From the NCBI RefSeq assembly GCF_030013595.1, contig NZ_CP122768.1: a stretch of 64,000 bases of DNA, one strand, 5' to 3'. The notes under the pieces were generated by a model. The model was not told the origin of the DNA and ran no database searches. It saw only the letters and a list, made by a program, of their open reading frames with translations. Positions 19,010 through 19,373 of the stretch are shown piece by piece. The DNA is from Escherichia coli (lineage in GTDB: Bacteria; Pseudomonadota; Gammaproteobacteria; Enterobacterales; Enterobacteriaceae). The position numbers were made by a program, and so were the translations under genes. The stretch's first letter is position 1, and the number at the start of each line of letters is the position of its first letter.

Positions 19010-19053
19010 ACACCACCAATGGCTGGCCTGGATTTATCGCCAGACCAGCCTCG

Positions 19054-19140
19054 TTATAGCAGTAATTGCAGCAGCTGGGTGAGGGCAAACTTCACCGCTA
19101 ATGCGAATGCCGTTTCGCAGTCGCCAGCAAAATTACTTTT
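19054..19140 (-). pseudogene. ydeJ: Possible 3' remnant of a CinA/PncC-family gene (ydeJ); rest of the gene absent
   Basis: Minus-strand translation ends ...GRVYKKSNFAGDCETAFALAVKFALTQLLQLLL*, resembling the C-terminus of CinA-domain proteins; the dcp-ydeI gap is only 365 bp. Coordinates approximate. Confidence 0.35.
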
Positions 19141-19373
19141 TTTGTATACCCTTCCGTTATAATAATTTTCAAATTTATAAATCTGATTGTTCTGAAATAT
19201 GTTTAAGACTCTTTAATCTTCTTCTTACTTTAGTGAGTTAAATTCTCTTAATATTTGACAGCTAGTTGCCTGATTTTAAATGCCTTATAACAATTGGCAG
19301 TATTCTTATTTGTCAATTATAAAAATAGCAACCAGACTTAATAAGTCAAACCAAACGCAATTAAGGAGTCAGT

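Follow-up and report, generated by a model that had tools for sequence, protein, structure and literature searches.

The short dcp-ydeI interval of an Escherichia coli genome as the probable scar of an old 475-bp ydeJ deletion

The 364-bp interval between dcp and ydeI in the 64-kb window (the whole stretch of DNA that was analysed) is, with a probability of about 0.95, the scar of one ancient 475-bp deletion of ydeJ that was not mediated by repeats. One old deletion would have taken codons 1-146 of ydeJ, including the start, and a 36-bp leader; the resulting allele would now be shared, identical by descent, by about one third of E. coli genomes, and the scar would have served as the substrate of a second, nested deletion of 502 bp that destroyed ydeI, for example in Nissle and clone D i2. 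RefSeq/PGAP already flags the remnant of the gene as a pseudogene, and what the scar records is ordinary gene decay: a common, old deletion allele of single origin.

The interval between dcp and ydeI and the remnant of ydeJ

The window is E. coli DNA, which over positions 18500-19900 matches strain EC556 at 100% identity and thousands of further complete genomes at 95-98%. The last base of dcp is 19009 and the first of ydeI 19374, leaving a gap of 364 bp (19010-19373), which an earlier sequence-only reading of the window had correctly called short while putting its length at 365 bp. The same interval of K-12 W3110 spans 837 bp and contains ydeJ, a minus-strand gene of 519 bp and 172 codons; the gap is too small for this gene, as that reading had judged, and aligning it to K-12, as the reading had proposed, showed that K-12 has the full ydeJ and not the short gap. 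K-12 YdeJ matches NF002972 over positions 1-171 of 175 (E = 5e-99) and CinA PF02464 over positions 3-155 of 155 (E = 9e-48), in agreement with the statement of that reading that a CinA/PncC-family gene lies between dcp and ydeI in K-12. The features of the locus in the window are as follows.

16964-19009, plus strand: dcp (peptidyl-dipeptidase Dcp), the intact left flank, convergent with ydeJ; coordinates from the open reading frame and from PGAP in the near-identical EC556
19021-19050, no strand: inverted repeat with a stem of 10-11 bp and a loop of 8 nt, lying between the stop codons of dcp and ydeJ
19054-19134, minus strand: ydeJ 3′ remnant, comprising the stop and the last 26 codons of the 172-codon gene; from translation, K-12 comparison, tblastn and PGAP
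19133-19134, no strand: deletion junction, from the K-12 alignment and a breakpoint walk
19134-19373, no strand: retained divergent intergenic region of ydeJ and ydeI, about 239 of 275 bp kept
19374-19766, plus strand: ydeI (YgiW/YdeI stress-tolerance OB-fold protein), intact

The ydeI product matches NCBIfam NF007471 over its full length (E = 6e-78) and Pfam BOF (E = 5e-41), and the PGAP annotation agrees. On the other side of the gap, NFAGDCETAFALAVKFALTQLLQLLL is encoded on the minus strand, followed by a stop codon at 19054-19056, and the C-terminus of K-12 YdeJ reads HFAGDCETVLALAVRFALAQLLQLLL before its stop codon. Homology extends over window positions 19054-19133, where 75 of 80 nucleotides (94%) and 21 of 26 amino acids are identical to K-12 ydeJ; pairwise BLASTP of the remnant with K-12 YdeJ gave E = 1e-7, and a tblastn search of the 64-kb window with K-12 YdeJ returned the remnant (E = 2.7e-4) as the only match with E < 1. 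This degree of nucleotide identity at the syntenic position, together with the BLASTP value and the uniqueness of the tblastn match, places the similarity well above chance. A C-terminal CinA-like peptide had been proposed at about 19054-19140, with tblastn and similarity to the YdeJ C-terminus as its checks; both bore it out, and only the upper end of the peptide had to be moved down to 19133. Relocation of ydeJ to another place in the window was considered and rejected, there being no other tblastn match with E < 1.

No open reading frame of at least 25 amino acids ends at 19054 on the minus strand, no ribosome-binding site was found, and the only in-frame start-type codon in the remnant is a GTG that would yield 13 amino acids. 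With neither a start codon nor a ribosome-binding site, the remnant is therefore a pseudogene fragment, and it is presumably non-functional. Of the five substitutions that separate it from K-12, four alter the amino acid, as expected in the absence of coding constraint, although the numbers are small, and the remnant is polymorphic among carriers of the scar. The 27-aa fragment from the window had no Pfam match at E up to 1, being too short for the CinA model; judged by the family models, the window holds a fragment of a member of the YdeJ/CinA-PncC family, not a member. PGAP independently places a pseudogene ('incomplete; missing N-terminus') on these 81 bp in EC556, 042 and 22AH104, and some records label the remnant 'hypothetical protein' instead.

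Several features elsewhere in the window were recorded in passing. Positions 1 to about 11500 hold the tail end of a lambdoid prophage, with a tail protein K-like peptidase, I, J, Lom and a long tail fibre of 1,118 aa, and with an Rfam IS009 match at 9802-10000; it sits at the Qin position beside a 5′-truncated ydfJ, where EC556 has a shorter Qin-like remnant. The spacer between ydeI and dgcZ contains a tandem octamer, GGTTATTG, at 19806-19835, in which the window exceeds K-12 and clone D i2 by two copies (16 bp). Between dgcZ and ydeE there is a strong Rfam match to STnc560 (280 bits) at 20939-21152 on the plus strand, overlapping the small orfs mgtT and mgtS (21042-21241) on the opposite strand. 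About 6 kb between eamA and marB (23694-29871) encode a GntR regulator, PTS components IIB, IIC and IIA, a carbohydrate porin and a 6-phospho-beta-glucosidase; eamA is directly beside marB in 042, and the segment is therefore an accessory sugar-uptake island. The gene of a large autotransporter at 52488-57955 is broken into two orfs that overlap, one of 1,356 aa carrying an ESPR signal and the other of 466 aa carrying the autochaperone and beta-barrel domains; its equivalent in EC556 is annotated by PGAP as a frameshifted 'ECSE_1600 family autotransporter'.

The deletion junction and the retained spacer

Alignment and the breakpoint walk agree that the window lacks 475 bp relative to K-12 in one clean gap between 19133 and 19134, supporting the proposal that ydeJ was lost between dcp and ydeI with a short 3′ remnant left behind. 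The missing stretch corresponds to positions 3634-4108 of the K-12 locus, that is, to ydeJ codons 1-146 and the 36 bp that precede them, and the placement of the junction is ambiguous by at most one nucleotide (T). A search of the K-12 breakpoints for direct repeats of at least 8 nt found none, which rules out a repeat-mediated deletion and makes the event an illegitimate one. The 25-mer at the junction, CAGCAAAATTACTTTTTTTGTATAC, is identical in all six carriers examined (the window, EC556, F374, 22AH104, 042 and clone D i2), which indicates a single event.

The DNA to the right of the junction (19134-19373) has a GC content of 27%, compared with 49% for the whole window, and aligns to the ydeJ-ydeI spacer of K-12. 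When the window was compared with three ydeJ-positive strains, the 145 bp proximal to ydeI (approximately 19230-19373) were almost invariant, and most of the differences (about 14) fell in the 95 bp proximal to ydeJ (19134 to about 19230), seven of them within the first 25 bp. Those 95 bp are identical among carriers of different backgrounds, unlike the adjacent remnant with its polymorphisms. The seven differences in 25 bp beside the junction may indicate an event more complex than excision or the spread of a recombination tract, and the cluster as a whole could reflect changes made at the deletion, relaxed constraint, or a short recombination tract that has spread. An origin of the 25 bp as filler templated from the locus was rejected, as their best match is the homologous K-12 position (18 of 25) and the next best is 15 of 25.

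The AT-rich DNA has probably been kept as the control region of ydeI, and the near-invariance of the 145 bp next to that gene fits continued constraint of this kind. The rest of the gap had been described as AT-rich and promoter-like; the base composition bears out the first term, and the second holds by homology only, given that a sigma-70 scan of 18950-19450 found no excess of promoter-like sites over shuffled sequences (two found, 1.4 expected). A terminator scan of the same interval called none. The folding energy of the inverted repeat at 19021-19050 is −20 kcal/mol for the plus strand (z = −2.6) and −26.6 kcal/mol for the minus strand (z = −3.7). The repeat went uncalled because it has no T-run; it is present in K-12 and unaffected by the deletion, and it is a plausible candidate for a terminator hairpin common to dcp and ydeJ, which are convergent.

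These elements raise the question of whether the scar has acquired a role, either through a residual ydeJ-side promoter giving a short non-coding or antisense transcript that ends at the hairpin, or through altered regulation of ydeI, for instance by RcdA. The two sigma-70-like sites, both on the minus strand (19349-19322 and 19300-19273), the retention of the hairpin and the identity of the junction-adjacent 95 bp among diverse carriers despite a polymorphic remnant would suit such a role, but sites of this quality are no more frequent than in the shuffled controls, and the gap has no Rfam match, either at the gathering threshold or with the cut-off relaxed to E = 1. In K-12 the spacer between ydeI and ydeJ is bound by RcdA, which influences ydeI expression in certain conditions (PMC3535384), and the only near-match to the RcdA box (TTGTnnACA) in the K-12 spacer lies within the deleted 36 bp, with a different near-match at 19142-19150 of the window; however, a search of both alleles found sites with one mismatch only and is uninformative, and the published footprint is given as 'data not shown' (PMC3535384). 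The later deletion of the same DNA in about 1,020 genomes also argues against an important new function. A new role for the scar is very unlikely.

Frequency of the allele and direction of the change

In a population sample of 5,426 complete E. coli genomes, the K-12 segment that is deleted in the window was present in 3,618. The junction-spanning query was covered to at least 80% in 770 genomes, which are window-like, and about 1,020 more matched query positions 1-136 only, the pattern of a double deletion; the 5′ segment of ydeI was present in 4,371 genomes, a number consistent with those double deletions. The approximately 1,790 carriers nearly equal the 1,808 genomes without a match to the deleted segment anywhere, and the carriers therefore hold no ydeJ elsewhere. 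In clone D i2 the same ydeJ junction is accompanied by the second deletion, which spans 502 bp (window 19176-19677) with TT microhomology; this deletion, also found in Nissle, takes away the promoter of ydeI and about three-quarters of the gene from its 5′ end and leaves two adjacent pseudogene stubs (3636-3763 of the clone D i2 locus).

The carriers 042, Nissle and clone D i2 come from differing backgrounds, phylogroups D and B2, lineages that are often put close to the root of the species tree, and a distribution of this kind might suggest that the short gap is ancestral and that K-12-like strains gained ydeJ by insertion. The structure of the locus speaks against it. The truncated 3′ end in the window is in frame with K-12 YdeJ, which an insertion cannot leave behind, and an in-frame 3′ fragment of a gene whose full-length family model has 175 positions would be explicable only by loss. 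The boundaries of ydeJ in K-12 show no mobile-element features or direct repeats, and ydeJ is present in Salmonella (PMC7387798).

An independently truncated ydeJ tail points the same way. A degenerate pattern for the 3′ end of dcp was searched in genome contigs and returned ten chance matches and Escherichia sp. MOD1-EC7003, missing E. coli, Salmonella and other relatives. In MOD1-EC7003, dcp, the hairpin and about 44 bp of the ydeJ tail run directly into roughly the final 50 bp of dgcZ, and the joint shows ACCG microhomology; the fusion (about 10560-10690 of the MOD1-EC7003 locus) is equivalent to joining window position 19097 (approximately) to 20874 (approximately) and removes ydeJ, ydeI and most of dgcZ. 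On its contig, eamA directly follows an MgrR-like region, and mgtS and ydeE are also absent. This larger deletion, with its different breakpoint, is independent of the one in the window, and the locus therefore loses genes repeatedly in Escherichia. Ancestry of the short gap is effectively refuted by the in-frame remnant and deserves hardly any credence. An artefact of sequencing or assembly, in which the region was collapsed or wrongly joined, can be dismissed as the least credible account of all, the junction being present at full length in 770 independent complete genomes and with the nested deletion in about 1,020 more, among them the finished reference genomes of 042, Nissle and clone D i2.

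The lost gene and its relatives

Loss of ydeJ by deletion would leave the window strain without YdeJ/RdsA. According to NCBIfam and Pfam, YdeJ consists of a CinA/PncC domain only; it was reported to lack NMN deamidase activity and to have active-site residues substituted (PMC3855486). In Salmonella Typhimurium, ydeJ is rdsA (STM14_1830), 'regulator of DNA supercoiling A', the deletion of which raises negative supercoiling, and the promoter of the gene is itself supercoiling-sensitive (PMC7387798). A search of the literature found no phenotype for ydeJ in E. coli, the Salmonella phenotype being the only one published. The PGAP product name for ydeJ is '2-oxo-tetronate isomerase' (OtnI, EC 5.3.1.35), taken from NF002972 (for example at 3554-4072 of the K-12 locus). 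The characterised 2-oxo-tetronate isomerase of E. coli is b2739 (OtnI), not ydeJ (b1537) (PMC12506659, Table 2), and no paper was found that ties the CinA-like YdeJ to this activity; the product name looks doubtful for YdeJ and may have been mis-propagated.

Alone, the deletion is of small significance, as a common presence/absence polymorphism of a small gene with a poorly defined function. It does mean that the gene content of K-12 and the K-12 regulatory data on ydeJ and ydeI do not carry over to about one third of E. coli. The locus can also serve as a clean lineage marker, its three alleles being intact, scarred at ydeJ, and scarred at ydeJ with ydeI deleted as well, and the carriers are ready-made natural rdsA-null strains in which to examine the role in supercoiling that was reported for Salmonella. 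If YdeJ acts in E. coli as it does in Salmonella, the third of the species that includes 042, Nissle and clone D i2 might, as natural ydeJ/rdsA nulls, have a supercoiling set-point unlike that of K-12-like strains, and the loss of ydeJ, then of ydeI, and in another Escherichia species also of dgcZ might represent adaptive erosion of a stress and supercoiling module instead of neutral decay. This is a speculative extension and is considered improbable, though less so than a new role for the scar.

Relative to the K-12 gene (b1537, UniProt P31131; WP_001024746.1), which occupies the same position, codons 1-146 with the start codon and the 36-bp leader are missing from the window. The family relative PncC/YgaD, an NMN deamidase (PF02464), has the same single CinA/PncC domain as full-length YdeJ, from which it differs in that YdeJ was reported inactive (PMC3855486). 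Salmonella rdsA is the same gene by its literature name, ydeJ, and its deletion there was engineered, whereas the deletion described here is natural. The closest counterparts are other E. coli alleles: the pseudogenes of 042 (EC042_RS31100, NC_017626.1) and EC556 (QUE77_RS04800) share both the 81-bp remnant and the junction 25-mer with the window and do not differ from it, and that of clone D i2 (I02_RS28565) likewise has this remnant and junction, with clone D i2 and Nissle additionally lacking the DNA that corresponds to window positions 19176-19677.
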